NCBI GenBank assembly: GCA_964016885.1 | Contig: OZ024740.1 | Span: 57,350,001-57,414,000 of the forward strand | DNA from: Eledone cirrhosa | Lineage: Eukaryota | Length of the DNA: 64,000 nt | Direction: 5' to 3' | Shown: piece after piece, positions 23,317 to 63,838 of the stretch | Numbering within the stretch: position 1 is the first letter of the stretch | How the letters are laid out: each line of letters begins with the position of its first letter | Notes under the pieces: model-generated | What the model saw: the letters and a program-made list of their open reading frames with translations, nothing else | Database searches by the model: none | Told to the model about the DNA's origin: nothing | Made by a program: the position numbers and the translations under genes

Positions 23317-26907
<3,591 letters not shown>

Positions 26908-27131
26908 GGGGGGGGGTGTTAGTAGGCGTCAGTCATCTTACCATTCCATTCCTTCTAACTAGCCTCTGTGTCACGTGATTGATTCTTTAGAATCGGCCAT
27001 TTGACTTGAAGCAGTGAGAATTTCGGCACATAGAATCCAGTCCTCGCAAGCTGTTCGATCTACCGAATTATTATTATTTTTATATGAGCCGCCAGTGTCC
27101 GCGCATTGCCTGGAGACTTAACTGAGAATAG

Positions 27132-27213
27132 ACTCCCTGATGACGCAATGAATTCTCGACAGTTGGATTACGTAACTGTCTTTATCCCATTGCAGAAACT
27201 AATTAGTTGGAGT
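27132..27213 (+). ncRNA. Type I hammerhead ribozyme (unit 1)
   Basis: actcc-CTGATGA-c-gcaatg..cattgc-a-GAAA-ctaattag-TT-ggagt. Confidence 0.85.
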
Positions 27214-27452
27214 GAAAATTTAAGTAAGTAAAAAAAATTTTTTAAAAATTTTTTTTAAAAAATATTTTCTTATTTTACGTCCTTTATATTATTGTTCTGC
27301 ATTCTCCTGCATTGAACCACCTAGGTACTATGACATAACCTGTGTATTTGCTGGCATGGGCGTGCATCTGTGCGCTTATGTTAGTTGATATATTAAATTA
27401 TCTATATTTATCTCCAAATCACTGATTTGTCGAGCAAACTTGTCAAAACCAC

Positions 27453-27491
<39 letters not shown>

Positions 27492-27714
27492 TTTTGGGGT
27501 GTTAGTAGGCGTCAGTCATCTTACCATCCCATTCCTTCTAACTAGCCTCTGTGTCACGTGATTGATTCTTTAGAATCGGCCATTTGACTTGAAGCAGTGA
27601 GAATTTCGGCACATAGAATCCAGTCCTCGCAAGCTGTTCGATCTACCGAATTATTATTATTTTTATATGAGCCGCCAGTGTCCGCGCATTGCCTGGAGAC
27701 TTAACTGAGAATAG

Positions 27715-27796
27715 ACTCCCTGATGACGCAATGAATTCTCGACAGTTGGATTACGTAACTGTCTTTATCCCATTGCAGAAACTAATTAGTTGGAGT
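27715..27796 (+). ncRNA. Type I hammerhead ribozyme (unit 2)
   Basis: Same motif as unit 1. Confidence 0.85.
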
Positions 27797-28036
27797 GAAA
27801 ATTTAAGTAAGTAAAAAAAAATTTTTTTAAAATTTTTTTAAAAAAATATTTTCTTATTTTACGTCCTTTATATTATTGTTCTGCATTCTCCTGCATTGAA
27901 CCACCTAGGTACTATGACATAACCTGTGTATTTGCTGGCATGGGCGTGCATCTGTGCGCTTATGTTAGTTGATATATTAAATTATCTATATTTATCTCCA
28001 AATCACTGATTTGTCGAGCATACTTGTCAAAACCAC

Positions 28037-28071
<35 letters not shown>

Positions 28072-28294
28072 GGGGGGGGTGTTAGTAGGCGTCAGTCATC
28101 TTACCATCCCATTCCTTCTAACTAGCCTCTGTGTCACGTGATTGATTCTTTAGAATCGGCCATTTGACTTGAAGCAGTGAGAATTTCGGCACATAGAATC
28201 CAGTCCTCGCAAGCTGTTCGATCTACCGAATTATTATTATTTTTATATGAGCCGCCAGTGTCCGCGCATTGCCTGGAGACTTAACTGAGAATAG

Positions 28295-28375
28295 ACTCCC
28301 TGATGACGCAATAATTCTCGACAGTTGGATTACGTAACTGTCTTTATCCCATTGCAGAAACTAATTAGTTGGAGT
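28295..28375 (+). ncRNA. Type I hammerhead ribozyme (unit 3, 1-nt deletion in stem II)
   Basis: Same motif, gcaataattc instead of gcaatgaattc. Confidence 0.82.
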
Positions 28376-28614
28376 GAAAATTTAAGTAAGTAAAAAAAAT
28401 TTTTTTAAAATTTTTTTTAAAAAATATTTTCTTATTTTACGTCCTTTATATTATTGTTCTGCATTCTCCTGCATTGAACCACCTAGGTACTATGACATAA
28501 CCTGTGTATTTGCTGGCATGGGCGTGCATCTGTGCGCTTATGTTAGTTGATATATTAAATTATCTATATTTATCTCCAAATCACTGATTTGTCGAGCAAA
28601 CTTGTCAAAACCAC

Positions 28615-28664
<50 letters not shown>

Positions 28665-28887
28665 GGGGGGGGTGTTAGTAGGCGTCAGTCATCTTACCAT
28701 CCCATTCCTTCTAACTAGCCTCTGTGTCACGTGATTGATTCTTTAGAATCGGCCATTTGACTTGAAGCAGTGAGAATTTCGGCACATAGAATCCAGTCCT
28801 CGCAAGCTGTTCGATCTACCGAATTATTATTATTTTTATATGAGCCGCCAGTGTCCGCGCATTGCCTGGAGACTTAACTGAGAATAG

Positions 28888-28969
28888 ACTCCCTGATGAC
28901 GCAATGAATTCTCGACAGTTGGATTACGTAACTGTCTTTATCCCATTGCAGAAACTAATTAGTTGGAGT
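28888..28969 (+). ncRNA. Type I hammerhead ribozyme (unit 4)
   Basis: Same motif as unit 1. Confidence 0.85.
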
Positions 28970-29041
28970 GAAAATTTAAGTAAGTAAAAAAAATTTTTTT
29001 TAAATTTTTTTTAAAAAATATTTTCTTATTTTACGTCCTTT

Positions 29042-29076
<35 letters not shown>

Positions 29077-30583: not shown

Positions 30584-30636
<53 letters not shown>

Positions 30637-30638
<2 letters not shown>

Positions 30639-31078
30639 ATGTATATATAATGTATTTTGCAATGCACTTCATGCTTAATTAAAAGCATTTTGAAGACCGT
30701 AAGCTATTGTTTTAAAGTAGTAACAAATTCACTCACTTTGATCTCAGCAAACAGGGGAGATAAGCCGACAAGTCTTGTTTCGCTTTGGTTGAAGCTTATC
30801 AAGGCCAACTACCCCGCCTGTCTACTGAGATCATTGATGTTATATTCTTATAGAAATCTAGTAAATAATCAGGAGCTGATTATGCAGAGCGGTTGTTGGT
30901 CAGGCAGAAATTAAAAATTAGAATTGGAGCTCTGAAACAGCAATATATATATCAAAGTGAGTGAATTTGTCACTACTTTAAAACAATAGCTTACGGTCTT
31001 CAAAATGCTTTTAATTAAGCATAAAGTGTATTGCAAAATACATTATATATACATCCATATATATATTGCTATTTCAGA
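30637..31078 (-). mobile_element. Copy of the ~315 bp hammerhead repeat with a partial inverted copy
   Basis: Homologous to 55917-57162; about 30951-31078 is inverted. Confidence 0.85.
30763..30806 (-). ncRNA. Minimal type I hammerhead, U3:A8 variant
   Basis: ggcc-TTGATAA-gctt caacca aagc-GAAA-caag a cttg-TC-ggct. Confidence 0.8.
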
Positions 31079-31352
31079 GTGAGGTTTTTTTTACAAAATG
31101 AAAAATAACCGAGGTGTCCTACACGAGTGAAAGTATAAAGAAAAAGAGATGAAATCGAAAATGCAGCTGGAGTCTTATTTTTTTACAAATATATATATTT
31201 ATTTATAAATATATATTTAAAATATATATATTTATATATATATATTTATTTATATATATACATTTATTTATATATATATATTTAAAAATATATATATTTT
31301 TTAAAAAAATAAGACTCCAGTTGCATTTTCGATTTCATCTCTTTTTCTTTAT

Positions 31353-42332: not shown

Positions 42333-42559
42333 AAATTCAACTCAACAGGTTAGAATTTACTTCATTTATTCATAATCGCTGTTATATATATTTCGGTGAT
42401 AATTGTTATGCAACAGTTATAACCTCATCAGACAGCTAGAAGTTGAACAGGAAAATACAGAAAAACATGAAGAAGAAATAAAGATTACCTTTGTTGTTAT
42501 CGAAACAACAAGGGTATTTTTTATTTCTTCTTCGTATTTTCCTTTTTTTTCTGGGTTTG

Positions 42560-44314: not shown

Positions 44315-46000
44315 GCGGCGATGAATTAGTTTTGCGAGGTTTTTTATATGAAATCGTGTGTCGAAACAGATATTGTTATATTTGGGGAGGGTCATATTTG
44401 CGTAATATTGCCAGAATTAATAACAGAACACACTCACTGTTTGGTTGGTTTTCGCTTCTCGCTGTCTTTTATATATATGTATCTGCGATCTAACTTACTC
44501 GGTCCTCAATGTTGCCATTGACTGACCGGCGGTCAAAAATAATACAGATACAATATAGACAAACACATATATATATAGTTTACATAAATCTTTCGTTGCA
44601 CATCTGCAACATCGTCAGTGGTGTTATATTCATTGTTCCTCCTGTTGTGTTGTATGTCTACGCCATTTTTTTTGTTCAGTCTGTCTATATATTTATTTAT
44701 TTATTTGCTTGTTTGTTTATCTTATTTTATTTTGTCTTCTTTGCGCATGCGTTTGCGTGTGTGTATAGTGTTATGTGTGATGTGTGACTAGTGTGTATAG
44801 TGTTGTGTCTGCTGGGTGACTAGTGTGTGTTTATGTGCTTGTGTATGTATTTATTTATCTTATTTTATTTAATTTAATTTACTTATTTATTTATACTTCT
44901 CTTAGGTCAGTGTTGTTTGTTTGGGTGTTGTTGTTGTTCCACTCATTCTTTCTGTTTAGCTTTGGTCTTCTAATTTCTATTTCACTGGCCTCTCTGATTT
45001 GCCTATCTGCTGGGTCATTCCTATGTTTAGATATTATTCTAATTTCTATGTTGTCTATGTTACCGTCATGATGTTGTCTAGCATGTTCGTATAGTACTGA
45101 CCCGTTTTTTCGTCCTTTTAGTTCCCCCCAGTGTTGGTCTATCCTTTCACCTAGCATAAGATGTACAGAGGGTACTTGCAGAAACACGACAACAACATAC
45201 ATAGGTGAGACAGCTCGTAGCATAGGTGAAAGGATAGACCAACACTGGGGGGAACTAAAAGGACGAAAAAACGGGTCAGTACTATACGAACATGCTAGAC
45301 AACATCATGACGGTAACATAGACAACATAGAAATTAGAATAATATCTAAACATAGGAATGACCCAGCAGATAGGCAAATCAGAGAAGCCAGTGAAATAGA
45401 AATTAGAAGACCAAAGCTAAACAGAAAGAATGAGTGGAACAACAACAACACCCAAACAAACAACACTGACCTAAGAGAAGTATAAATAAATAAGTAAATT
45501 AAATTAAATAAAATAAGATAAATAAATACATACACAAGCACATAAACACACACTAGTCACCCAGCAGACACAACACTATACACACTAGTCACACATCACA
45601 CATAACACTATACACACACGCAAACGCATGCGCAAAGAAGACAAAATAAAATAAGATAAACAAACAAGCAAATAAATAAATAAATATATAGACAGACTGA
45701 ACAAAAAAAAAATGGCGTAGACATACAACACAACAGGAGGAACAATGAATATAACACCACTGACGATGTTGCAGATGTGCAACGAAAGATTTATGTAAAC
45801 TATATATATATGTGTTTGTCTATATTGTATCTGTATTATTTTTGACCGCCGGTCAGTCAATGGCAACATTGAGGACCGAGTAAGTTAGATCGCAGATACA
45901 TATATATAAAAGACAGCGAGAAGCGAAAACCAACCAAACAGTGAGTGTGTTCTGTTATTAATTCTGGCAATATTACGCAAATATGACCCTCCCCAAATAT

Positions 46001-46006
<6 letters not shown>
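44315..46006. mobile_element. Penelope-like element 3' end as a ~780-bp-arm palindrome
   Basis: 44372-45153 is the reverse complement of 45223-46006; GIY-YIG C-terminus and HHR cores at 44591-44618 (-) and 45760-45787 (+). Confidence 0.9.
45162..45485 (+). pseudogene. GIY-YIG endonuclease C-terminal fragment
   Basis: TYIGETARSIGERIDQH..SVLYEHARQHH..RQIREASEIEIRRPKLNRKNEW. Confidence 0.85.
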
Positions 46007-46064
<58 letters not shown>

Positions 46065-46436: not shown

Positions 46437-47016
46437 TGTCCCCCTTGCTTCTGCTGGACATCACCAGAGGGCGTTAGCCCCCGGTGTTTGCATAGCTACG
46501 GCTTCCTAAAACCGTATTTCTTTGGAGATGCGAAATATTTATACATATTGTATAAAGCTATGCTTGAAGCGAAATACTATTTCTCTCGATATATATATAT
46601 ATATATGTGTAATCTAGCTGTCGTCTGTTCTACAGTGTGGATGTAATTCACTTCGCACAGAAGTTTTGTTCAAATTTATTGAAGAAATTTTGTGAGTTCA
46701 AACTTAATTTTGATACAATTGTGTAGCTTGACCCTCCGTCTGAACTGTCAGGCGGTGGGTCAGCTCATCTTTACCCCTCCTAGAGGTGAAAAACCTGTTT
46801 TAAAAAATTTTGTGTAAAAAATTTCAATCGTCTAACAGAAATGTTAAACGCAGCGAACGAAAATAGTGGTGGGGGGACAGCGGTAAGAGTTGTAAGCTCG
46901 CACGCTTTAGTCCCCCCCCCTTTCTTCCCAACTAACGTCATAGAGAAGGAAGGAAAAATTAAAATAAAAACAGACGAATCTGCGGAGAAAAAAATGACGA
47001 AAACACAAATCTGGAC

Positions 47017-48849
47017 ATGGATTCCAACAACGGAAAAAAAAAATTTGAAAAGTTGCATGACAATACTAATAACACAAACAAAGACACAACAAACACAAAA
47101 ATAACATTTGAAAATAACACCATAACAGAAAGCAAAGCAGACGACAAGATTTCATTTGCACAGAAAACAAAGAAATCTTTGACTTATATAGCGGAAAATA
47201 TTTCAGATGTGGCACGAAGGATCACAGACGCCAAACAATACATAAGTGAAGGAGAGAATGGTATTTTATCGGTAAAAATGCCTCAAGAATTCACCAAAGA
47301 CATTGAAAGCCGAACGGTCAAGTTTCGGACCATCAACAACAGTACAAAAAAACCTGAACAGCCTTCTCAAGCAGATATCAAAACAGTACTCACAGAAGTA
47401 CTTAATGAAACCACTTTCATAAGAAAAGACAGACTGTATGGAAGCCTAGCAATTATCATGAAGAACGAATCGGCGGCAAAAAAATGTGTTTTGTCACCAA
47501 TTCGTTCGAAAAATTTTACCTTTTATCCATCTTATATGCGTAAAAGAACTCAACGCATATGGCTGGATGCAATGATGCCAGATGTGGACTACTGCTGGCT
47601 CATAGCTGGCTTCATCGATCCAGTGAATGACAACGTGATTTCCATTGGGAAAACCACAGGCAATGCGTTCAGTGGAACAGGTATAGAGCTGGTAGTGCAA
47701 ATGAAGCCTGAACGCATCGCCCAAATACCCGACAGAATCCTATTAGAGGACCACGGGTATATAAACATTAGCGTGGAGGGGAGAAGGCCGTCCTGCCATA
47801 TCTGTGCAGGCAGAGGGCACCTGAAGGCCGCTTGTCCCCAACTCAACAAAAAGAAAACCCTGCTACCAACACCAGCTCCACCACCACCAACACAACAGAT
47901 AAACAAACAACAAAACTCAGTCCCACCCAACCCGTCCCTCAGTAAAACCACACCACCACCACAACACAAACAGTCACAACACATTACCCCAAAACAAAAT
48001 ACAGGCCCACCCAACCTCTCACTCAATAAAACAACACAACCACCGCAGACACAACACACAACACAGTCTAACATAGTGACATCCATCTCCCCCACAAAGA
48101 AAACCAACACGGAAACATTACCAGCAAACATACCTCTTCCCTCCAACACTGAAGATAACCCAACGAATTCGGAGGAAGAAACGGAGTCCTTCAGACAGAT
48201 TAAAAGGAAAAAAAGAAAACATGTGCAAAACACACAAGGCCAAACAACCCCCACCCAAATCTCAACACAATCCAACAAAACAGAAAACACCCCTCCAGCA
48301 ACAAACAAAACCAAACCTGCCCCTCCCCTCTTCGAAACACTCACACCATCCGAAAAAAAGACATTACACTATACTTACATCAACAGAAACAATAATAAAT
48401 TAAATGAACTCATATACAATAATCCTTCGGTACAAACCGAAGGGGTAAACTTTGTTTCCTCAGAAAACTACCCACATTTAAAACTAATAAAGATCCCAAT
48501 GAATCTCTACCAAAAACTAAAAAAGGATTTTAAGGAGGACGTAGGACCACCCTCTGTCAAACCCATAAACCGCGTCCTACTAAAAAGCTTTCCCCTCCCC
48601 TTCCCCTCCCCAACACAACTCCAAACACCCAAACCCCACCACACACTGACGACCCCACACCACCACAAGACATCCCTTCACCCAACACCCCCGACCCCAT
48701 GGAAGTCATGCAACCCGAACCCGGGAAGCGGAAAGGTAGGTCTCTACACTCTCCTTTGGCTCTGCCGCCCACATGGATGTGTTAAGAGTAGGATGTTTGA
48801 ATGCACATGGCCTGGGCTCAACTTGGAAGCAAGCAAAGCTTCTAAATGA
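47017..48849 (+). CDS. LINE ORF1 (gag-like, CCHC knuckle, P/T/Q-rich tail)
   Basis: 610 aa ORF containing CHICAGRGHLKAAC; overlaps the ORF2 start. Confidence 0.8.
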   Translation: MDSNNGKKKFEKLHDNTNNTNKDTTNTKITFENNTITESKADDKISFAQKTKKSLTYIAENISDVARRITDAKQYISEGENGILSVKMPQEFTKDIESRTVKFRTINNSTKKPEQPSQADIKTVLTEVLNETTFIRKDRLYGSLAIIMKNESAAKKCVLSPIRSKNFTFYPSYMRKRTQRIWLDAMMPDVDYCWLIAGFIDPVNDNVISIGKTTGNAFSGTGIELVVQMKPERIAQIPDRILLEDHGYINISVEGRRPSCHICAGRGHLKAACPQLNKKKTLLPTPAPPPPTQQINKQQNSVPPNPSLSKTTPPPQHKQSQHITPKQNTGPPNLSLNKTTQPPQTQHTTQSNIVTSISPTKKTNTETLPANIPLPSNTEDNPTNSEEETESFRQIKRKKRKHVQNTQGQTTPTQISTQSNKTENTPPATNKTKPAPPLFETLTPSEKKTLHYTYINRNNNKLNELIYNNPSVQTEGVNFVSSENYPHLKLIKIPMNLYQKLKKDFKEDVGPPSVKPINRVLLKSFPLPFPSPTQLQTPKPHHTLTTPHHHKTSLHPTPPTPWKSCNPNPGSGKVGLYTLLWLCRPHGCVKSRMFECTWPGLNLEASKASK

Positions 48850-51800
48850 CCTCAGGTCATGTAGTATAAATGTAATGGTTATCTGTGAGACTCGAATCAG
48901 CGTCGTGCGGCAGCTGGCCCCCACCTTCGATGACTTTGAGGTGCATGCATCTCTCTGTCAACCTGGAGGTGGGGGTGGGGTTGTCGTACTGCTGCAAAAA
49001 CACCTGGGTCTTGCCGTACAGGTTGTGCACTCGGACCCGGAGGGTCGTTTGTTGGTGCTAGACGTTGGCAATAGTGAAAGTGCGACCTTGAGACTGGTCG
49101 CCGTCTACTCCCCTTTCGGAGCTGAACGGCCCGACTTCTTCCAGCGTTTGGAGACTTTTCTGGGAACGTCGCGTTCCCTGCTTCTAGCGGGGGATTGGAA
49201 TGACATCCTAGATGCACGTTGGGACTATGCAGGAGCATGTCCTAATAGAGGGCGGTGTAACAGCCTCAAGGGGTTACTCGACCGTTTTAACTTGGTCGAT
49301 AGATATCGACTAGATTTTCCAACTGTGCCTACCTGGACTTGGAGAAACCACAGTGGTCAATCTAGATCGTACTTAGATAGATTCTTAATTAGAAGTAAGG
49401 ATAGGGACATATTAAGCTGTCCAGAAATGCGCACGGTTGGCTACACGGATCACAAATTAGTGACCTGCGTAGTCAATCTCGAGAAAACACATAAACAGGG
49501 TCCCGGTTACTGGAAACTTAATTTGTCTTTACCGGAAAAAGAGACTTACAGAAACCGGATTAGCAGATTAGTTAAGGAGAGGTTGACGGGTGCAATCGTC
49601 AACAACCGATGGTGGGCATCTCTCCAAAGAGAGATTAGAACAGAATCAATAAGTTATAGCAAGATGTTAGCTGCCGATAGGAATAGAAACGAGAAAGAAT
49701 TAACAGGTAAATTAGAAGAGGCAATCAAGAGCGAAGATGTGGCCAGAGTGCTGGCATCGAGGACGGCCTTGAACCAGTTTTTCGATGCAAAGCACGAAGG
49801 CTGCGTCATTCGAAGTAAAATACGTGCTCTAGGCAATGAGGGGGCCAAAGCCGTTGGCTGGGCCCGCGTGACAGAAGCTAAGAGTGGAAATTGATCCACC
49901 ATCCGGTCGTTGCAAGACGAAGATGGACGGGTCATCCGGGAGCCTAAGCAGATGTGCGAGGCCTTTCAAAGACACTTTGCCCGATTGTTCGGGGGAGGCG
50001 GGGGTCCGGGCGGGGGCGTGGATTTCGGTCCATACCTCGACGGCCTGCCGCGTCTCTCGAGCGAAGAGGCAGAGTCCTGCGAGGGACCAATCTCGGCTGA
50101 TGAGATCGGAGATGCGCTGAGCCAATGCAGCAGACGCAAATCTCCAGGTCTCGATGGTATACCTTACGAACTTTATTTAGCAATGCCGGTCTTCTTCTCC
50201 GAACTCCTCGAAGCGGTCTACTGCAATTGGCAGCAGAACGGGAGAATTCCTTGTTCTGTAGCCAAGGGCGTAGTCACGCTGGTGAGGAAGGACGAGAACA
50301 AGGGAGATAGTATAAATAATTTTCGGCCCATAACCCTGCTAAACACAGAGTCAAAGATTTTGGCCAAGGTGTTAGCAAAGAGGTTGGCGCTTGTCGTGGG
50401 TGGCCTGGTGGGAGATGCGCAGACATGTGCTATCCCATCCAGGTCCATTCACGATAACCTCCACCTCATGCGATACATCATAGAGAGGGTTGGCAACAAA
50501 CCCGGCTTCGGTGGGGCCCTGATCAACTTGAATCAGTCTAAGGCCTTCGATAGGGTCGACCATGGTTACCTGGATGCGGTGCTAGCGGCGGCTGGGTTCG
50601 GTCCTGTTTTCAGAGGCTGGATCACTGCCTTACATAGCAACCACATCTGTTCTAGGATCAAGGTGAACGGCTACCTTTCGAAGCCGTTCGAAATCACACG
50701 ATCCATTCGACAGGGGTGCCCTCTCTCCTCCCTTCTGTACGTATTGACTCTCGAGCCTTTACTGAGGAAGTTGGAGTTGTTGCAGGGTATCCCCCTGGAA
50801 CCAGGATTGAGCAAAGCGGTGTCGGCCTACGCCGATGACGTAACAGTAATGGTATCGACCGACTCGGAGATCGAGGCGATCGGTACCTTACTGGAGGAGT
50901 ACGAAAGGTTGTCAGGAGCGAAACTGAACCGGGAAAAATCCATCGGGCTGCAACTCGGAACGTGGAGAGGCAGACCGATGCCTCCTGACGGTGTCGTCGG
51001 ACACTGGACGGAGGGCCCGGTAAAGTTGCTTGGGGTCTGGTTTGGACCGGACCTCCAGGTGGAAAAGAACTGGAACGAGGTTACGAACAAGGTGTTTGCA
51101 CTAACCCAGAAATGGGCCAAGTGTAAGCTGTCCCTAAAAGGCCGGGCGGAGGTGGCGAACATTTACATAGCGTCCGTCACTTACTACCGCCTGACTGTCG
51201 TGCCTTGCCCTAAGGAAACACTCACCACCATGGAACGCATGCTCTTCCAATTTCTTTGGAAGAAGCGCCCTCCTATGGTGAGAAGATCCATCTGCTGCCA
51301 ACAACCTTCGAAAGGAGGGCTGGGGATGCCGTGGTTGATGATGCGTAGGCACGCATTAAGGCTACGGCACCTACAGGTATTCCTCACTGGTCAACCGGTG
51401 TGGGCTCCGTTCGTGAAACGAGCCTTTCCGAGACTCGTCTCGCTCACCGAGCTACAGTCCTGGGTCAAGCAAAGATCCGGAAAACTGGGAGACTGGCACA
51501 CTGAGTGTGCTCAGGCGCTCAGGGCTCTCTGGCAAGCGGGCCAGGCCATCGGTGGAGAATCCACCTCATCATTCTATAGAGGGCTGGTGGCTAGCAGGGG
51601 CGATGACACCCTTGGAGAGTCGCTAGACATGGAAGATGACGAACTGGCCAGCCTGTTCGGTAGGACTTTCGGCCCAGGACCAATGGACAACTTCCAGAAG
51701 TCACTGGCCTGGCAGTGCTACCGGGGGGCTCTACCCGTTCGAGAGAGGCTCTACAGACACGGGCGCCCGGGCAGGGATCCCTCAAAAAAGATTTGCCCTA

Positions 51801-52210
51801 GATGCGTGCGTCACGAAGAAACCGTTGCGCACGCATTGGTGCAATGTCCGGGCGTGGCTGATCTGTGGGGCTACGCCGAACGACTGCTGTCGCGGGTGGC
51901 GCCGATTAAATTGACCGCCGAGTCCGTGATGACAATCAAACCGCCTCCCTTCTTCACAAAGGAAGCAAAGGCGGTTTTTCTGTGCGTAATAGCCATGTTG
52001 AAAGAGGTTGTTTGGTGGACACGATTGAAAGGTCTGAGGTCAGGCAACTTCCTCTCTGGCCATAGTCTGGTCTACTTCTTCCGATATCACTTCGGAAGAA
52101 GGATAAGAATGGAGAGAGAGGTGCTTGGCCACAGGCAGTTTTATGAAAGGTGGGTGATAGTGGCGAGAATGGCTCGTGTAAATGGGCCTTCTCTGTATAC
52201 CATCCTGTAG
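48773..52210 (+). pseudogene. LINE ORF2 (APE endonuclease, RT, Zn knuckle) with one in-frame TGA at 49892-49894
   Basis: CLNAHGL, GDWN, SYLDRF, TDH, KSPGLDG, NFRPITLLN, RQGCPLS, YADD, CPRC..ETVAHALVQC; the two track ORFs share a frame. Confidence 0.92.
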
Positions 52211-52815: not shown

Positions 52816-52850
<35 letters not shown>

Positions 52851-52860
52851 AACCAGTAAG

Positions 52861-52954
52861 ACCCCGACAGCTGAGCTCAAGCCGTTTCGACGGCTAATTC
52901 TGGACTAAATGAAAATTTATCCTGGTATTTAAATAGCCGATCTTCTCAAGGGGT
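52861..52954 (-). ncRNA. Type I hammerhead (U3:A8), sense copy
   Basis: acccc-TTGAGAA-gatcggcta..tagccgtc-GAAA-cggct tgagctc agctg-TC-ggggt. Confidence 0.85.
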
Positions 52955-54064
52955 AATTCCATATATGGTCAAAGTGATTGTCAAAAATCAGTAGTAATTC
53001 TGTGGTTGCAGATTAGTAGGGGAGATGGTGGCTAAACCTGCCAGTAGGAGAAAGAGGGGAGGGGGTGGAGTAGACCCAATCAAGCGTTGGTAGTGCCAGC
53101 TACAGCTGGGCATGAGGTCAAAGAAGATACAGGGGAGGGGGAGGGGGAGGAAGTCGGAACGGTAGGTAGAACAATGGGGGGTAGAAATAGGAAAGAAAAA
53201 ATACTGAGAGTGAAGAAAAGCAAATAAGTGTAAAGAAAAAGAAAAAGTAAAGTAAATTAAATTCAACGACCTAGGTGTCAGGCTATTGTTAGGCGAGAAT
53301 AAAATAAAGAAAGAAAGAAAGAAGTAAATAAATAAATAAATAAATAAATAAGGAAATAAGTAAGAGAACTAGGTGGGACGGATTAGGCAAGGACCCTTTT
53401 AAGAGGTATAAGTACGTAAATGATACGGTGACGGGTCAACAAAAGGGGCCAAAATACTAAAGAGACTACCACGAAATAAACAATAAAGGTTTCCATCCCG
53501 GGCCAGCAACGACCCAGTGCAGCAAAGTGAACTTGTACGAGATAATAATTCTGAGTCCCGGGAAAAATATATACTAATGCTAACTCTAAAAGATCTAAAA
53601 CAAGCTACATGAAAGTTCGTACGAAATAAAGGTAGAATACGGAGAAATAAATTCAGAATCCACCCCGCCCAGAAGAAAAGCGAAGCAAGAAATACTGAAA
53701 CGAAAAAATAAGGCATAAGTGCCACTAAGAAATATAGAGGGCACAGAGAATAGTGGGAGCGGTCGGAAAAAGGGGGAAAGTATCCGGGGTCTAAGCCAAC
53801 TGCTATAAAGGGCGGAGTCCACCAAATCTATCAAAGACTAGGGGAGGGGGGGGGGGTACTAAGGCTACATGGGGCCAAAAGGCAGCCTCGGGTGGGCGAG
53901 AAAAGACGCCGACAAAGGAGAAGAGCTGGGGTAGAAGGACAAAGGAGAGAGGGGGGAAGGAAATAAAGGAAGCGATAAAAGAATACAAAGAAGATCTTAC
54001 GTCTTCCTTGGCAAGCAGGGGTTACCCATTGCAAAATCGGCAACTGGGGTGTTATAGCCCTAGT

Positions 54065-55504
54065 CTACCCCCCCCCCCCCCCCGGGTCATTATGGGGTTT
54101 GAGGGCGAGGTAAGTCCTACGCAATCTATGTTTACATGCAGTAACCAGTTCATCTTTCTTGTTTAGGAGTTGGTCCGTCGAAAACAGCATTTGTAAAGTT
54201 TCCTCCGAGCATAAATTGCACGGACGGCGTCCTCCCGTGTAAGAATTGGCTCTGGACAGTAATCTCCAAGTGAGATCATAGGTGATGTTGTTGTCCTTGA
54301 GGTCCCATATGTGGCCCGAAAGTGTAGTGGCGTGACGCCGGGCCGGGTTTCGGAAGGTATGTCTATGTTGGTATAGCCGGGTCTTGAAGTCACATGCGGT
54401 AAGTCCTATATAGGCTTTGTTGGAGGTATCCGTCCTCACGTTGCACTGGTAGATCACATTACGGTCTCTGCATCTATTGTCGAGTGGGCAAATAGATCTA
54501 TCCGGGCAGTTACACCTCCTGGTCGGTTCTCCACTGCTAATTAGGTTATTTCTGCCATCGGGGTTGAGTTTTTTGTTGTTAGAGGAGACGATGTTTTGTG
54601 CGAAGTTTGGTGTAGTGCTGTAAGAGAGTTTGATGGTATTTTTGTTAATTATGTTGTGGTAGCGGTGTTGTAATGGGAAGTGTTTTTCAATGAGCCTAAA
54701 GAATAGTTTCCCGATGGGAGTAGTCACCTCTGCGTTGTGGGGAGGATTGAACCATGTTACATTGCGTGAGCGGCGGTGTCTCCTGCTGGTTCCGCTAATG
54801 GGAGCTGGGCAGTAGGATATTTCCTCCCGGAAACCACTCCGCTTGAGGGCCTGATTGTAATAAGGCGCATGTTCATCGAATATCCGCTCATTAGCTGACA
54901 AACGGGATATGCGGAGGGAGATGTTTTTGACCAGGTTGTTTGTGATGTTCCTAGGATGGTTTGATCGGCGGTGGATGTAGTGCAGATTGTCATTAGGTTT
55001 CCTGTATGGGTAGTACAGGTCGTTTTCGAGATCGAGGGTTACGTCCAGGAAGTTTACTCGGGTCAGGGACGTTTGTAGGGTTATTTTAAATCCCCAGTCG
55101 CGGAAGAATCTGATTAATTGTTTCCGGACCCGATCTGTACTACTGGGGTTGTACCCTTTAAGGGTAAGGAGCCCATCATCACGGTACAATCCACCACCGA
55201 ATGCAGGAAACATATCAGTGAGTTTGGCTATTAGGAATAATCCTATAAGATCAGTGACCTCCGCCGAATCCGTGGCGCCCATGCTGACGTCGAAGGGTGA
55301 GTCAGGAGCTCTTTTTATCCATTTAGAGTTGTCAAAGAGTAAGACTGTCTTCCTGGCGTGGAGGATGATTTTTCTTTCCTGGTCGGTGATGGGCACGAGT
55401 GTTTCGGCGAAGTCCAAGGCGGCAGTAAGTAGCGGTAAGGTGATTGAAGCATAGTAGCTCTCTATGTCGAACTGTATGAATTTAGTTTCTCGTTTATCCT
55501 CCAT
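54065..55504 (-). CDS. Naiad-type PLE RT (C-terminal part) plus GIY-YIG; open 479 aa but N-terminally truncated
   Basis: FIQFDIESYY, FDVSMGATDSAEV, GLYRDDGL, PYRKPN, SNHP, WFNPP, CNC..CPL..C, YIGLT, CNLCSEE. Confidence 0.9.
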   Translation of the reverse strand: MEDKRETKFIQFDIESYYASITLPLLTAALDFAETLVPITDQERKIILHARKTVLLFDNSKWIKRAPDSPFDVSMGATDSAEVTDLIGLFLIAKLTDMFPAFGGGLYRDDGLLTLKGYNPSSTDRVRKQLIRFFRDWGFKITLQTSLTRVNFLDVTLDLENDLYYPYRKPNDNLHYIHRRSNHPRNITNNLVKNISLRISRLSANERIFDEHAPYYNQALKRSGFREEISYCPAPISGTSRRHRRSRNVTWFNPPHNAEVTTPIGKLFFRLIEKHFPLQHRYHNIINKNTIKLSYSTTPNFAQNIVSSNNKKLNPDGRNNLISSGEPTRRCNCPDRSICPLDNRCRDRNVIYQCNVRTDTSNKAYIGLTACDFKTRLYQHRHTFRNPARRHATTLSGHIWDLKDNNITYDLTWRLLSRANSYTGGRRPCNLCSEETLQMLFSTDQLLNKKDELVTACKHRLRRTYLALKPHNDPGGGGG

Positions 55505-55596
55505 ATTAGGCAGGTTTAGCCACCATCTCCCCTACTAATTTGCAACCACAGAATTACTACTGATTTTTGACAATCACTTTGACCATATATGGAATT

Positions 55597-55690
55597 ACCC
55601 CTTGAGAAGATCGGCTATTTAAATACCAGGATAAATTTTCATTTAGTCCAGAATTAGCCGTCGAAACGGCTTGAGCTCAGCTGTCGGGGT
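55597..55690 (+). ncRNA. Type I hammerhead (U3:A8), inverted copy
   Basis: Same motif; predicted cleavage after C55685. Confidence 0.85.
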
Positions 55691-55781
55691 CTTACTGGTT
55701 CCTATTACCCACTCTACTACCTCAAGTATTGAGTACTTTGGTGCGTTATGGTCCACCTGGTTCCTTACCACATTTCCTTCG

Positions 55782-55829
<48 letters not shown>

Positions 55830-55866
55830 ATATATATATATGCATATATATATATATATGTGTGTG

Positions 55867-55897
<31 letters not shown>

Positions 55898-55916
55898 ATG
55901 CATATATATATATATA

Positions 55917-57162
55917 TGGATGTATATATAATGTATTTTGCAATACACTTTATGCTTAATTAAAAGCATTTTGAAGACCGTAAGCTATTGTTTTAAAGTA
56001 GTGACAAATTCACTCACTTTGATCTCAGCAAACAGGGGAGATAAGCCGACATGACATGTTTCGCTTTGGTTGAAGCCTATCAAGGCCAACTACCCCACCT
56101 GTCTACTGAGATCAATGATGTTATATTCTTATAGAAATCTAGTAAATAATCAGGAGCTGATTATGCAGAGCGGTTGTTGGTCAGGCAGAAATTAAAAATT
56201 AGAATTGGAGCTCTGAAATAGCAATATATATATGGATGTATATATATTGCATAATCAGCTCCTGATTATTTACTAGATTTCTATAAGAATATAACATCAT
56301 TGATCTCAGTAGACAGGTGGGTAGTTGGCCTTGATAGGCTTCAACCAAAGCGAAACATGTCATGTCGGCTTATCTCCCCTGTTTGCTGAGATCAAAGTGA
56401 GTGAATTTGTCACTACTTTAAAATAATAGCTTACGGTCTTCAAAATGCTTTTAATTAAGCATAAAGTGTATTGCAAAATACATTATATATACATCCATAT
56501 ATATATTGCTATTTCAGAGCTCCAATTCTAATTTTTAATTTCTGCCTGACCAACAACCGCTCTGCATAATCAGCTCCTGATTATTTACTAGATTTCTATA
56601 AGAATATAACATCATTGATCTCAGTAGACAGGTGGGGTAGTTGGCCTTGATAGGCTTCAACCAAAGCGAAACATGTCATGTCGGCTTATCTCTCTGTTTG
56701 CTGAGATCAAAGTGAGTGAATTTGTCACTACTTTAAAACAATAGCTTACGGTCTTCAAAATGCTTTTAATTAAGCATAAAGTGTATTGCAAAATACATTA
56801 TATATACATCCATATATATATTACTATTTCAGAGCTCCAATTCTAATTTTTAATTTCTGCCTGACCAACAACCGCTCTGCATAATCAGCTCCTGATTATT
56901 TACTAGATTTCTATAAGAATATAACATCATTGATCTCAGTAGACAGGTGGGTTAGTTGGCCTTGATAGGCTTCAACCAAAGCGAAACATGTCATGTCGGC
57001 TTATCTCCCCTGTTTGCTGAGATCAAAGTGAGTGAATTTGTCACTACTTTAAAACAATAGCTTACGGTCTTCAAAATGCTTTTAATTAAGCATAAAGTGT
57101 ATTGCAAAATACATTATATATACATCCATATATATATTGCTATTTCAGAGCTCCAATTCTAA
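55917..57162 (+). mobile_element. ~315 bp hammerhead repeat: one inverted copy plus ~2.9 tandem copies; retrozyme-like
   Basis: HHRs at 56044-56087 (-) and 56327-56370, 56643-56686, 56958-57001 (+): ggcc-TTGATAG-gctt..aagc-GAAA-catg t catg-TC-ggct. Confidence 0.88.
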
Positions 57163-57178
57163 TATATATATATATATT

Positions 57179-57268
<90 letters not shown>

Positions 57269-57300
57269 ATTTATATATATATATATATATTTATATATAT

Positions 57301-61237: not shown

Positions 61238-61238
<1 letters not shown>

Positions 61239-62596
61239 ATTAAGTTAAAAATGTACATCCACATATGTATACTGAAATACTAGTATGCATATGAATACAC
61301 ACACGTGTACATATGTAGATGTACCGAGTTTTTCACTGGACACTTTACTGTGAGTGTCCAGCTATTCTGTATGTAAACACACAGACAAACCGGTTTTTAG
61401 AGTCATACTAGTTTTCGAGGAAACACCTTTCCTCTATTCTCCAGAAAGCCAGACAGGAATATTGGACTAGTTTCGATGTTGTTACATCTCATCAGCAATA
61501 TTTACCTATCTTCCGGCCTTTCTAGAGAATCGTAAAAGCACATATCGTTATATGCTTTTTCTATGAAAATTAGTAGTGGGCAGACTAATTTGCATAGAGC
61601 GTGAGTACGTACCGGTTCAGCGGAGACGATAAAAACAAATAACGAAACGAAATTAAATTTCGTTTTTATCGTCTCCGCTGAACCGGTACGTACTCACGCT
61701 CTATGCAAATTAGTCTGCCCACTACTAATTTTCATAGAAAAAGCATATAACGATATGTGCTTTTACGATTCTCTAGAAAGGCCGGAAGATAGGTAAATAT
61801 TGCTGATGAGATGTAACAACATCGAAACTAGTCCAATATTCCTGTCTGGCTTTCTGGAGAATAGAGGAAAGGTGTTTCCTCGAAAACCAGTATGACTCTA
61901 TAAACCGGTTTGTCTGTGTGTTTACATACAGAATAGCTGGACACTCACAGTAAAGTGTCCAGTGAAAAACTCGGTACATCTACATATGTACACGTGTGTG
62001 TATTCATATGCATACTAGTATTTCAGTATACATATGGGGATGTACATTTTTAACTTAATTGTTTAAGCGTCAGTCATACAAAAGTGAGTTACAAACGAAA
62101 CGAAATTTAATTTCGTTTCGTTATTTGTTTTCATCGTCTCCGCTGAACCGGTACGTACTCACGCCCTATGCAAATTAGTCTGCCCACTACTAATTTTCAT
62201 AGAAAAAGCATATAACGATATGTGCTTTTACGATTCTCTAGAAAGGCCGGAAGATAGGTAAATATTGCTGATGAGATGTAACAACATCGAAACTAGTCCA
62301 ATATTCCTGTCTGGCTTTCTGGAGAATAGAGGAAAGGTGTTTCCTCGAAAACCAGTATGACTCTAAAAACCGGTTTGTCTGTGTTTACATACAGAATAGC
62401 TGGACACTCACAGTAAAGTGTCCAGTGAAAAACTCGGTACATCTACATATGTACACGTGTGTGTATTCATATGCATACTAGTATTTCAGTATACATATGT
62501 GGATGTACATTTTTAACTTAATTGCTTAAGCGTCAGTCATACAAAAGTGAGTTACAAACGAAACGAAATTTAATTTCGTTTCGTTATTTGTTTTTA
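61238..62596 (+). mobile_element. 465 bp hammerhead repeat: inverted copy plus two tandem copies; retrozyme-like
   Basis: HHRs at 61458-61502 (-), 61796-61840 and 62261-62305 (+): aatattg-CTGATGA-gatgt aaca acatc-GAAA-ctag-TC-caatatt. Confidence 0.9.
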
Positions 62597-63322: not shown

Positions 63323-63653
63323 CACATATATACATGTATATATTGTACCTTTTGATTTTTAATTTGGAATTTTAATGTTGGTATAGATATATTATTATTA
63401 TAATGTATTATACTGTGTTATATATAATTCCTGCTCTATATAACCAAATTTGTTTAGATTTAAGTTGGTGACTTTGGACTATATTTGTAATATGGTTCTT
63501 AATGTTATCTACATCCTTAGTTATTATAATTTTATTATTTTTATCTTCATTTTTATTATCGTATATCTTTGTAAGACATTAGTGTATGTAAACTCCATAT
63601 TCTTCAGAGTTTCTGGCTTGTATCTGCCGAAATTACCTCTTGTTGTTTTGATT

Positions 63654-63691
63654 GCCCTGATGAGTCCTTAATAGGACGAAACATTGTCGGC
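63654..63691 (+). ncRNA. Minimal type I hammerhead at the end of an AT-rich PLE-like 3' region (about 62810-63740)
   Basis: gcc-CTGATGA-gtcct taat aggac-GAAA-cattg-TC-ggc, followed by aataaa. Confidence 0.85.
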
Positions 63692-63736
63692 TAATAAAAA
63701 CTTTTGGTGTATTAAAGGATTCTTTGTTTTACTCTC

Positions 63737-63838
<102 letters not shown>

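Follow-up and report, generated by a model that had tools for sequence, protein, structure and literature searches.

A non-LTR retrozyme family of Eledone cirrhosa, with tandem and inverted arms set in (TA)n and probably copied by a PLE enzyme

Non-LTR retrozymes have been described in animals (Cervera & de la Pena 2020, PMC7229834; Li, Clavereau & Pollet 2026, bioRxiv 10.64898/2026.07.22.740005); when they have a target-site duplication, it is given as longer than 4 bp. Hammerheads are also found in Penelope-like elements (PLEs). In the Schistosoma element Cercyon, with about 1,300 matches, U3-A8 covariation has been reported (Cervera & de la Pena 2014, PMC4209133). U3:A8 is a known natural hammerhead variant (PMC4209133, PMC3088659), and A9 belongs to the consensus core (PMC3088659). 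As for the insertions of PLEs, the sources consulted describe inverted pLTRs of which one has a tail (PMC3846280, PMC8557442), (TA)n as the target of the Hydra clade (PMC8557442) and, for the PAc element, two internal RT start sites with extension of both target strands (PMC11167929).

The window we have analysed is a 64-kb stretch of the Eledone cirrhosa genome. At 55.9-57.2 kb a motif which resembles the type I hammerhead is present in four copies, one inverted and three in tandem. Copy 1 (56044..56087, minus strand) has its core TTGATAG starting at 56083 and its C17 at 56048, with U3:A8 and G9. Copies 2 (56327..56370), 3 (56643..56686) and 4 (56958..57001) are on the plus strand, and the same core starts at 56331, 56647 (56647-56653) and 56962. 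The helices of copy 3 are GGCC/GGCT in stem I and GCTT/AAGC in stem II, with GAAA, and a quasi-palindromic stem III. The C17 positions of the tandem copies (56366, 56682 and 56997) give cleavage-site spacings of 316 and 315 nt, in agreement with a previous sequence-only reading of this locus; TRF finds a period of 315 bp, 2.9 copies and 98% matches. All four copies depart from the canonical C3, G8, A9 consensus by U3:A8 plus G9. The Rfam model HH9 matches each of them (E 7e-4 to 4e-3, 24-26 bits) under its gathering score of 52, as expected from the variant core. The Rfam scan of the entire window was dominated by microsatellite matches.

A second insertion is found at 30627..31079. Its minus arm (30627-30952) contains the sole hammerhead of that locus, with core TTGATAA starting at 30802 (-), A9 and C17 at 30767. 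In its plus arm (30951-31079) unrelated sequence breaks off the unit at position 152. Across 291 bp the two loci share 96% identity, and they belong to one family, as had been proposed; the letters of both cores, the U3:A8 pair and the G9 of the four copies are also as they had been read. Stem III is CATG-T-CATG in the four copies at 55.9-57.2 kb and CAAG-A-CTTG at 30.8 kb. The pairing-preserving change seen between them is real, but it involves three letters rather than the two that had been counted, since the loop letter differs as well.

The insertion at 55.9-57.2 kb has two arms. The inverted arm (55908..56252, minus strand; 864-1208 of locus L001) contains about 1.1 unit, namely unit positions 111-315 plus 1-139, and its 3' end, in what we call the short register, runs into (TA)n near 55917. 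The forward arm (56248..57163, plus strand) has 2.9 tandem units of 315-316 bp and overlaps the inverted arm by 5 nt; its 3' end is in the tail register, at unit position 165, and is also followed by (TA)n. On the left the insertion is flanked by a (TA)n/(TG)n microsatellite (55783..55930) and on the right by a (TA)n microsatellite (57162..57300). The GC content of the 2-kb bin which contains it is 30%. It is non-coding: no stop-to-stop ORF in it reaches 150 aa, so the element has no RT/GIY-YIG ORF.

The window has other repeated elements. A second, unrelated retrozyme-like family, with a unit of about 465 bp, is found at 61238-62590 with the same inverted-plus-tandem layout in (TA)n; its core is the canonical CTGATGA, at 61495 (-), 61803 (+) and 62268 (+), and it scores 33.7 bits with Rfam HH9. 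A canonical hammerhead at 63640-63740 (core at 63657, +) ends in (TA)n, and there is a minimal-hammerhead-like motif at 42390-42445 (42431, -). A LINE occupies 46963-52210. Its frames are ORF1-like (628 aa), endonuclease-like and RT (RVT_1 and zf-RVT), and a single stop at 49894 lies between the endonuclease-like and the RT frame. At 44370-46008 there is a 1.6-kb palindrome with arms 97% identical, possibly another two-armed insertion, and 26873-29044 contains a tandem of units of about 586 bp, which have poly(A) runs and are 97-99% identical.

A hammerhead pattern of 35 places is matched 600 times in the 3.0-Gb host genome and its reversed control not once, so the hammerhead family is not due to chance. 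Its copies, at least 600, are dispersed on many contigs, with arrays of up to 104 units. With its non-coding tandem units of 315-316 bp, each with a type I hammerhead, and its dispersed copies, it is the retrozyme-like family which the first reading had suggested. Located 3' of the ribozyme is a 22-letter motif with 8,505 genomic matches, so that the superfamily has at least this number of matches; the motif led us to sister families, the most distant of them 73% identical. The family alignment contains 341 units from 83 loci, drawn from the best matches of two DNA searches, from the pattern matches on contig 1 (the first 100) and from the list of copies with T:A in stem III. In this sample, which is biased towards intact hammerheads, the mean divergence between loci is 2.7%, and by this measure the family is young. 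In public runs coded as other organisms the contigs yielded 0-2 pieces each, so we make no claim across species. Some arrays of the family, of up to 35 kb, are similar to satellites: L124-L127 (G000:C3:114.92-114.96 Mb), L259-L260 (C8:32.25 Mb) and L149-L151. They have higher-order repeats and a decaying stem III, which indicates expansion at the DNA level after insertion.

The fold of the hammerhead is best judged from the superfamily. We aligned 24 copies, the two forms of the window and 22 rows out of 31 from sisters or relatives; near-duplicates were omitted, and so were three rows whose 5' side was truncated or aberrant. In this alignment 92.4% of the cells are paired (35-47% in slid control structures) and both sides have changed at 18 of the 29 pairs, in every helix. 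None of 500 shuffles reaches the observed covariation, a control which overstates significance because the copies share ancestry. RNAalifold recovers the same fold with no structure imposed. The core pair 3:8 is U:A in 18 of the aligned copies and C:G in 6; an unbiased tally of 50 called sister cores has U:A in 27, C:G in 22 and another pair in 1, and 33 further matches to the 3' module gave no core call. The stem III palindrome is perfect or near-perfect in every family. For the family of the window no stable lone hairpin of stem III is predicted; its self-duplex is predicted at -8.7 to -10.5 kcal/mol, with mismatched intermediates at about -5. Such pairing between two copies is the dimer arrangement already described (PMC4209133). 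In a single copy the predicted hammerhead fold lies 5-6 kcal/mol above the minimum.

Once inserted, the copies decay neutrally. Sporadic changes per unit-site (181 units from 80 loci, large arrays and one duplicate omitted) have similar frequencies in the core (14/2534, 0.55%), in the stems (14/2896, 0.48%) and elsewhere (216/38922, 0.56%; p=1.0). The 11 variants which define lineages, each present in at least 5 loci, are of a different nature: none of them lies in the core or in the proximal stems I/II. Sporadic changes are thus even and lineage variants spare the core, which points to selection on the templates which found lineages and not on inserted copies. A long distal stem around the hammerhead (56612..56713, plus strand) covaries among sister families and has nearly all the changes which define lineages in the family. 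When boundaries are set post hoc at 56615-56714, all 11 variants fall inside this 100-nt ribozyme hairpin and none in the other 150 nt assessed.

Selection on the structure of the ribozyme had been deduced from the stem III swap between the two loci of the window. The conclusion is upheld by the covariation across the superfamily, but the swap itself is no argument for it. Pair 15.4:16.4 of stem III has A or T on both sides in 599 of the 600 pattern matches: 48 are T:A, 2 T:T and 2 A:A (both at one locus), which by subtraction leaves 547 A:T. On a tree with one unit per locus the T:A copies form one derived group (support 90/75, a rough value), so the difference between the two loci is a single event. 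Such a swap could be a mutational artefact, due to template switching which perfects a quasi-palindrome. The single origin fits this explanation, as do the shortness of the palindrome and the existence of single-change intermediates (T:T and A:A); it does not explain why pairs have changed on both sides in stems I and II, in the distal stem and at 3:8. We consider it unlikely, though worth serious thought, and it can apply to the stem III swap alone, in which case the main conclusion is unaffected.

The layout found in the window is general in the family. We have studied the 86 insertions clear of the fetch edges; they include two duplicated pairs and two array fragments. Two outward-pointing arms are present in 60 of them: 48 have one short and one tail end, none has two short or two tail ends, and 12 have a non-standard end. 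None of the duplicates and array fragments is among the 48. The 3' ends fall in two registers after the cleavage site, unit positions 133-140 (short) or 160-173 (tail), and almost always run into (TA)n; with its ends there, a target-site duplication would be masked. Among 21 sister loci, 16 are short+tail (one uncertain), 1 short+short and 4 other. A 3' module conserved superfamily-wide (57015..57163, plus strand) is predicted to fold into a junction of several hairpins, closed by stems which pair with the tail; the short end is placed at an AC-rich loop. Double changes are found in just 4 of the 35 pairs of this predicted fold. The module is likely the site where the mobilising protein recognises and primes the RNA. 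Inverted arms, short and tail ends and (TA)n targets constitute together the signature of PLEs, so the family has likely been moved by a PLE. In the literature searched we found no description of a strict short+tail rule for retrozymes. The unit also contains the motifs GTRAGT ... TTTCAG, which could suggest an intron; this idea was rejected as weak, with no spliced junctions in the genome and both motifs in predicted stems.

The arms also inform on their templates. The cleavage site is crossed by 127 of 141 arms and 47 of the 141 span two sites, in a sample chosen by intact hammerhead which favours read-through. No arm of the family sample ends exactly at the site; the nearest ends are at -2, -4 and +4. 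In four loci (L001, L026, L027 and L129) rare variants are present in every unit of the insertion, which fits a monomer circle. In three others (L134, L079 and L101) variants are in phase on both arms, which fits uncut multimers or later conversion between arms; they show that not all templates were monomer circles. Of 86 arms chosen solely by the 3' module, 19 stop 0-25 nt past the site and at most 7 within the preceding 24 nt, after dropping one row from the first bin and three from the second as full copies of divergent families. Three of these 19 end exactly at the site, in L186 and L192. The excess hints at cleaved linear templates, and stalling in the long stem explains it equally well. 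Templates have probably been mixed.

It is conceivable that a PLE moved the family while the hammerhead fold was only a signal for binding or folding, or a rare cutter, so that uncut multimers were the templates and circles had no part. Variants in phase on both arms and the absence of family arms which end exactly at the site agree with such a reduced role, as do two reports on PLEs: PAc hammerhead mutants still inserted in vitro (PMC11167929), and metazoan PLE hammerheads are low in activity (PMC4209133). It is hard to reconcile with catalytic positions which remain fixed while the stems turn over among families only 73% identical, with the covariation of the tertiary pair 3:8 and, unless due to stalling, with the arm ends in excess past the site. 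We find a reduced role of the hammerhead quite unlikely.

In hammerheads A9 pairs with G12, and altering A9 reduces activity. Genome-wide, 21 copies of the family have another letter at this position: 12 have G (at 6 places), 5 C and 4 T. The copies with C or T are found at 9 places, with A9C twice within one locus. Only two multi-copy insertions have G9 throughout, the one at 55.9-57.2 kb (4/4) and another in contig 2 at C2:114.8 Mb (2/2, on both arms), and they cluster on the tree (support 92/80). Elsewhere G9 is found in 1 of 2 copies at C3:198 Mb, in 3 of 35 in the C8 array, or in a lone copy on another sublineage. A9 is kept in 48 of 50 sister cores and in all contigs of two public runs (27/27 and 19/19).

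From its presence in all four copies it had been argued that A9G was amplified and hence may be tolerated. The data do not support this argument: G9 has 12 matches in all, at 6 places, A9 is retained in sister cores, and in inserted copies the core mutates at the same rate as the rest of the unit. Some insertions look as if copied from mixed uncut multimers and a PLE hammerhead was dispensable for insertion in vitro (PMC11167929), so being copied is uninformative on cleavage; G9 tells us no more than that it was present in the template of this insertion. If G9 were nevertheless an active, amplified core variant, one would understand that it fills both the window copies and the two arms at C2:114.8 Mb, in loci which group on the tree, that no other core variant fills any of the 55 multi-unit insertions sampled, and that the predicted folding is identical for G9 and A9. 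One would not expect it at so few places, in two of them partially (C3:198 Mb and the C8 array), nor A9C/T at 9 places, nor such retention of A9 in sister cores, in public runs and in the consensus core (PMC3088659). We regard an active G9 as very doubtful. More likely A9G came along as a passenger in the template copied here, and is a dead end. U3:A8 is already published, also for PLE hammerheads, and A9G is a rare local variant. Our literature search found no paper on the activity of A9G hammerheads; Luense et al. (PMC5785218) may cover such variants. A competing hairpin created by G9 was rejected, as its predicted probability is 0.01. Both G9-filled loci adjoin a Hydra-like PLE of the same group, which may be a coincidence.

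That Hydra-like PLE is, in the window, a young insertion at 52846-55780, separate from the adjoining retrozyme and with an unrelated pLTR. It has a 488-aa open RT/GIY-YIG fragment (ORF 54065-55531) with a CxCX5C linker and no Pfam match, and its 197-bp terminal repeat is inverted and tailed on one arm. In this repeat, near 55602 (+) and 52949 (-), we read by eye a hammerhead-like motif which has U3:A8; its sequence is unrelated. The genome also has a very young family of Neptune-like PLEs (99% identical copies, 1,643 candidates, a GIY-YIG match), which end in (TA)n with short and tailed ends. The 3' module is absent from both. In the loci examined, a small share of the 8,505 module matches, neither tblastn with three PLE proteins nor a search with the most divergent sister unit found a PLE ORF which leads into the module. 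A retrozyme arm is joined to an intact Neptune-like ORF in L133 (3711-5415), through a mere 2-nt TA microhomology, and to a Hydra-like ORF in L148 (3773-4775); nested insertion in (TA)n explains both joins too, and we did not accept them as linkage to a partner PLE. That the copies are truncated pLTR stumps of an autonomous PLE, with tandems due to local DNA duplication after landing, is scarcely credible: the copies do end like PLE pLTRs, Li et al. propose a local tandem expansion from PLE termini, and large arrays (C3, 104 units) have higher-order repeats of DNA origin, but arms of up to 2.9 kb go from unit into unit with no ORF sequence, a third of all arms (47/141) span two cleavage sites, no PLE ORF runs into the module in the loci examined, multi-unit arms retain the short and tail ends, and the stem III type is uniform in 48 of the 55 multi-unit loci.

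The element at 55.9-57.2 kb is a non-LTR retrozyme, likely moved by a PLE; its cleavage and its circles are predictions. The copy number, the covariation, the two fixed 3' registers, the two-armed layout and the neutral decay have been established directly, and we consider it probable that a non-coding hammerhead family with a 316-bp unit has been inserted in (TA)n, in arms both tandem and inverted, and copied in trans by a PLE enzyme. Its tandem arrays would be transcribed, and neighbouring hammerheads would exchange the strands of their palindromic stem III and cut as a dimer after GUC. Monomers would thus be freed and some of them circularised. The RT/GIY-YIG protein of a PLE would bind the structured 3' module, nick both strands of (TA)n and prime once at each of two internal sites of the RNA, with one short and one tailed arm, pointing outward, as the result. 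Most arms read through the cleavage site, which suggests that the templates were mostly circles or uncut multimers, and only lineages with an intact fold would go on founding subfamilies. A preprint in which only 1 of 9 Xenopus retrozyme dimers was cleaved in vitro counts against this explanation, as do the hammerhead fold being above the predicted minimum in a single copy, the in-phase variants on both arms, and the search of the loci examined, which found no autonomous PLE with this 3' module.

More tentatively, and with somewhat less than even confidence, the superfamily may be read as a record, on the scale of a genome, of the life cycle of retrozymes: ORF-less hammerhead RNAs would be cut in vivo, circularised and written as ready-made arrays by a PLE enzyme which always fires both start sites, one per target strand, and C3:G8 would have switched to U3:A8 inside the superfamily while selection was kept. 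If so, animal retrozymes would be parasites of PLEs which are moved whole, and not locally expanded terminal repeats. These results bear on how animal retrozymes move and on why PLE hammerheads stay conserved though dispensable for insertion in vitro. They offer a countable in vivo match to the two-start-site mechanism of PLEs, and natural pairs for comparison: C3:G8 and U3:A8, A9 and G9, perfect and imperfect stem III palindromes.

Compared with the animal non-LTR retrozymes as they have been described, this family has the same non-coding tandem units in the range 150-450 bp, low GC, a type I hammerhead in each unit, copies from dispersed monomers to large arrays, and PLEs in the same genome. 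It differs from them by the U3:A8 core in most sister families, by the two-armed inverted insertions with a strict short+tail rule, and by a homologous autonomous pLTR not being found in the loci examined. It shares with the PLE hammerheads (PMC4209133) a small palindromic helix III suited to dimers; unlike them, the motif here has a long distal stem and belongs to ORF-less tandem units, and one superfamily includes C3:G8 as well as U3:A8. As in EN+ PLEs (PMC3846280, PMC8557442), there is an inverted 5'-truncated arm, a tail of about 30 bp at one end and an AT-rich target; in contrast to them, the element has no RT/EN ORF, and the young Hydra-like and Neptune-like PLEs of this genome both target (TA)n. 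As in the PAc PLE (PMC11167929), the 3' ends are internal to the RNA, near an AC-rich loop. Judged by its sequence, the element has every testable feature of an animal non-LTR retrozyme and behaves as a non-autonomous PLE.
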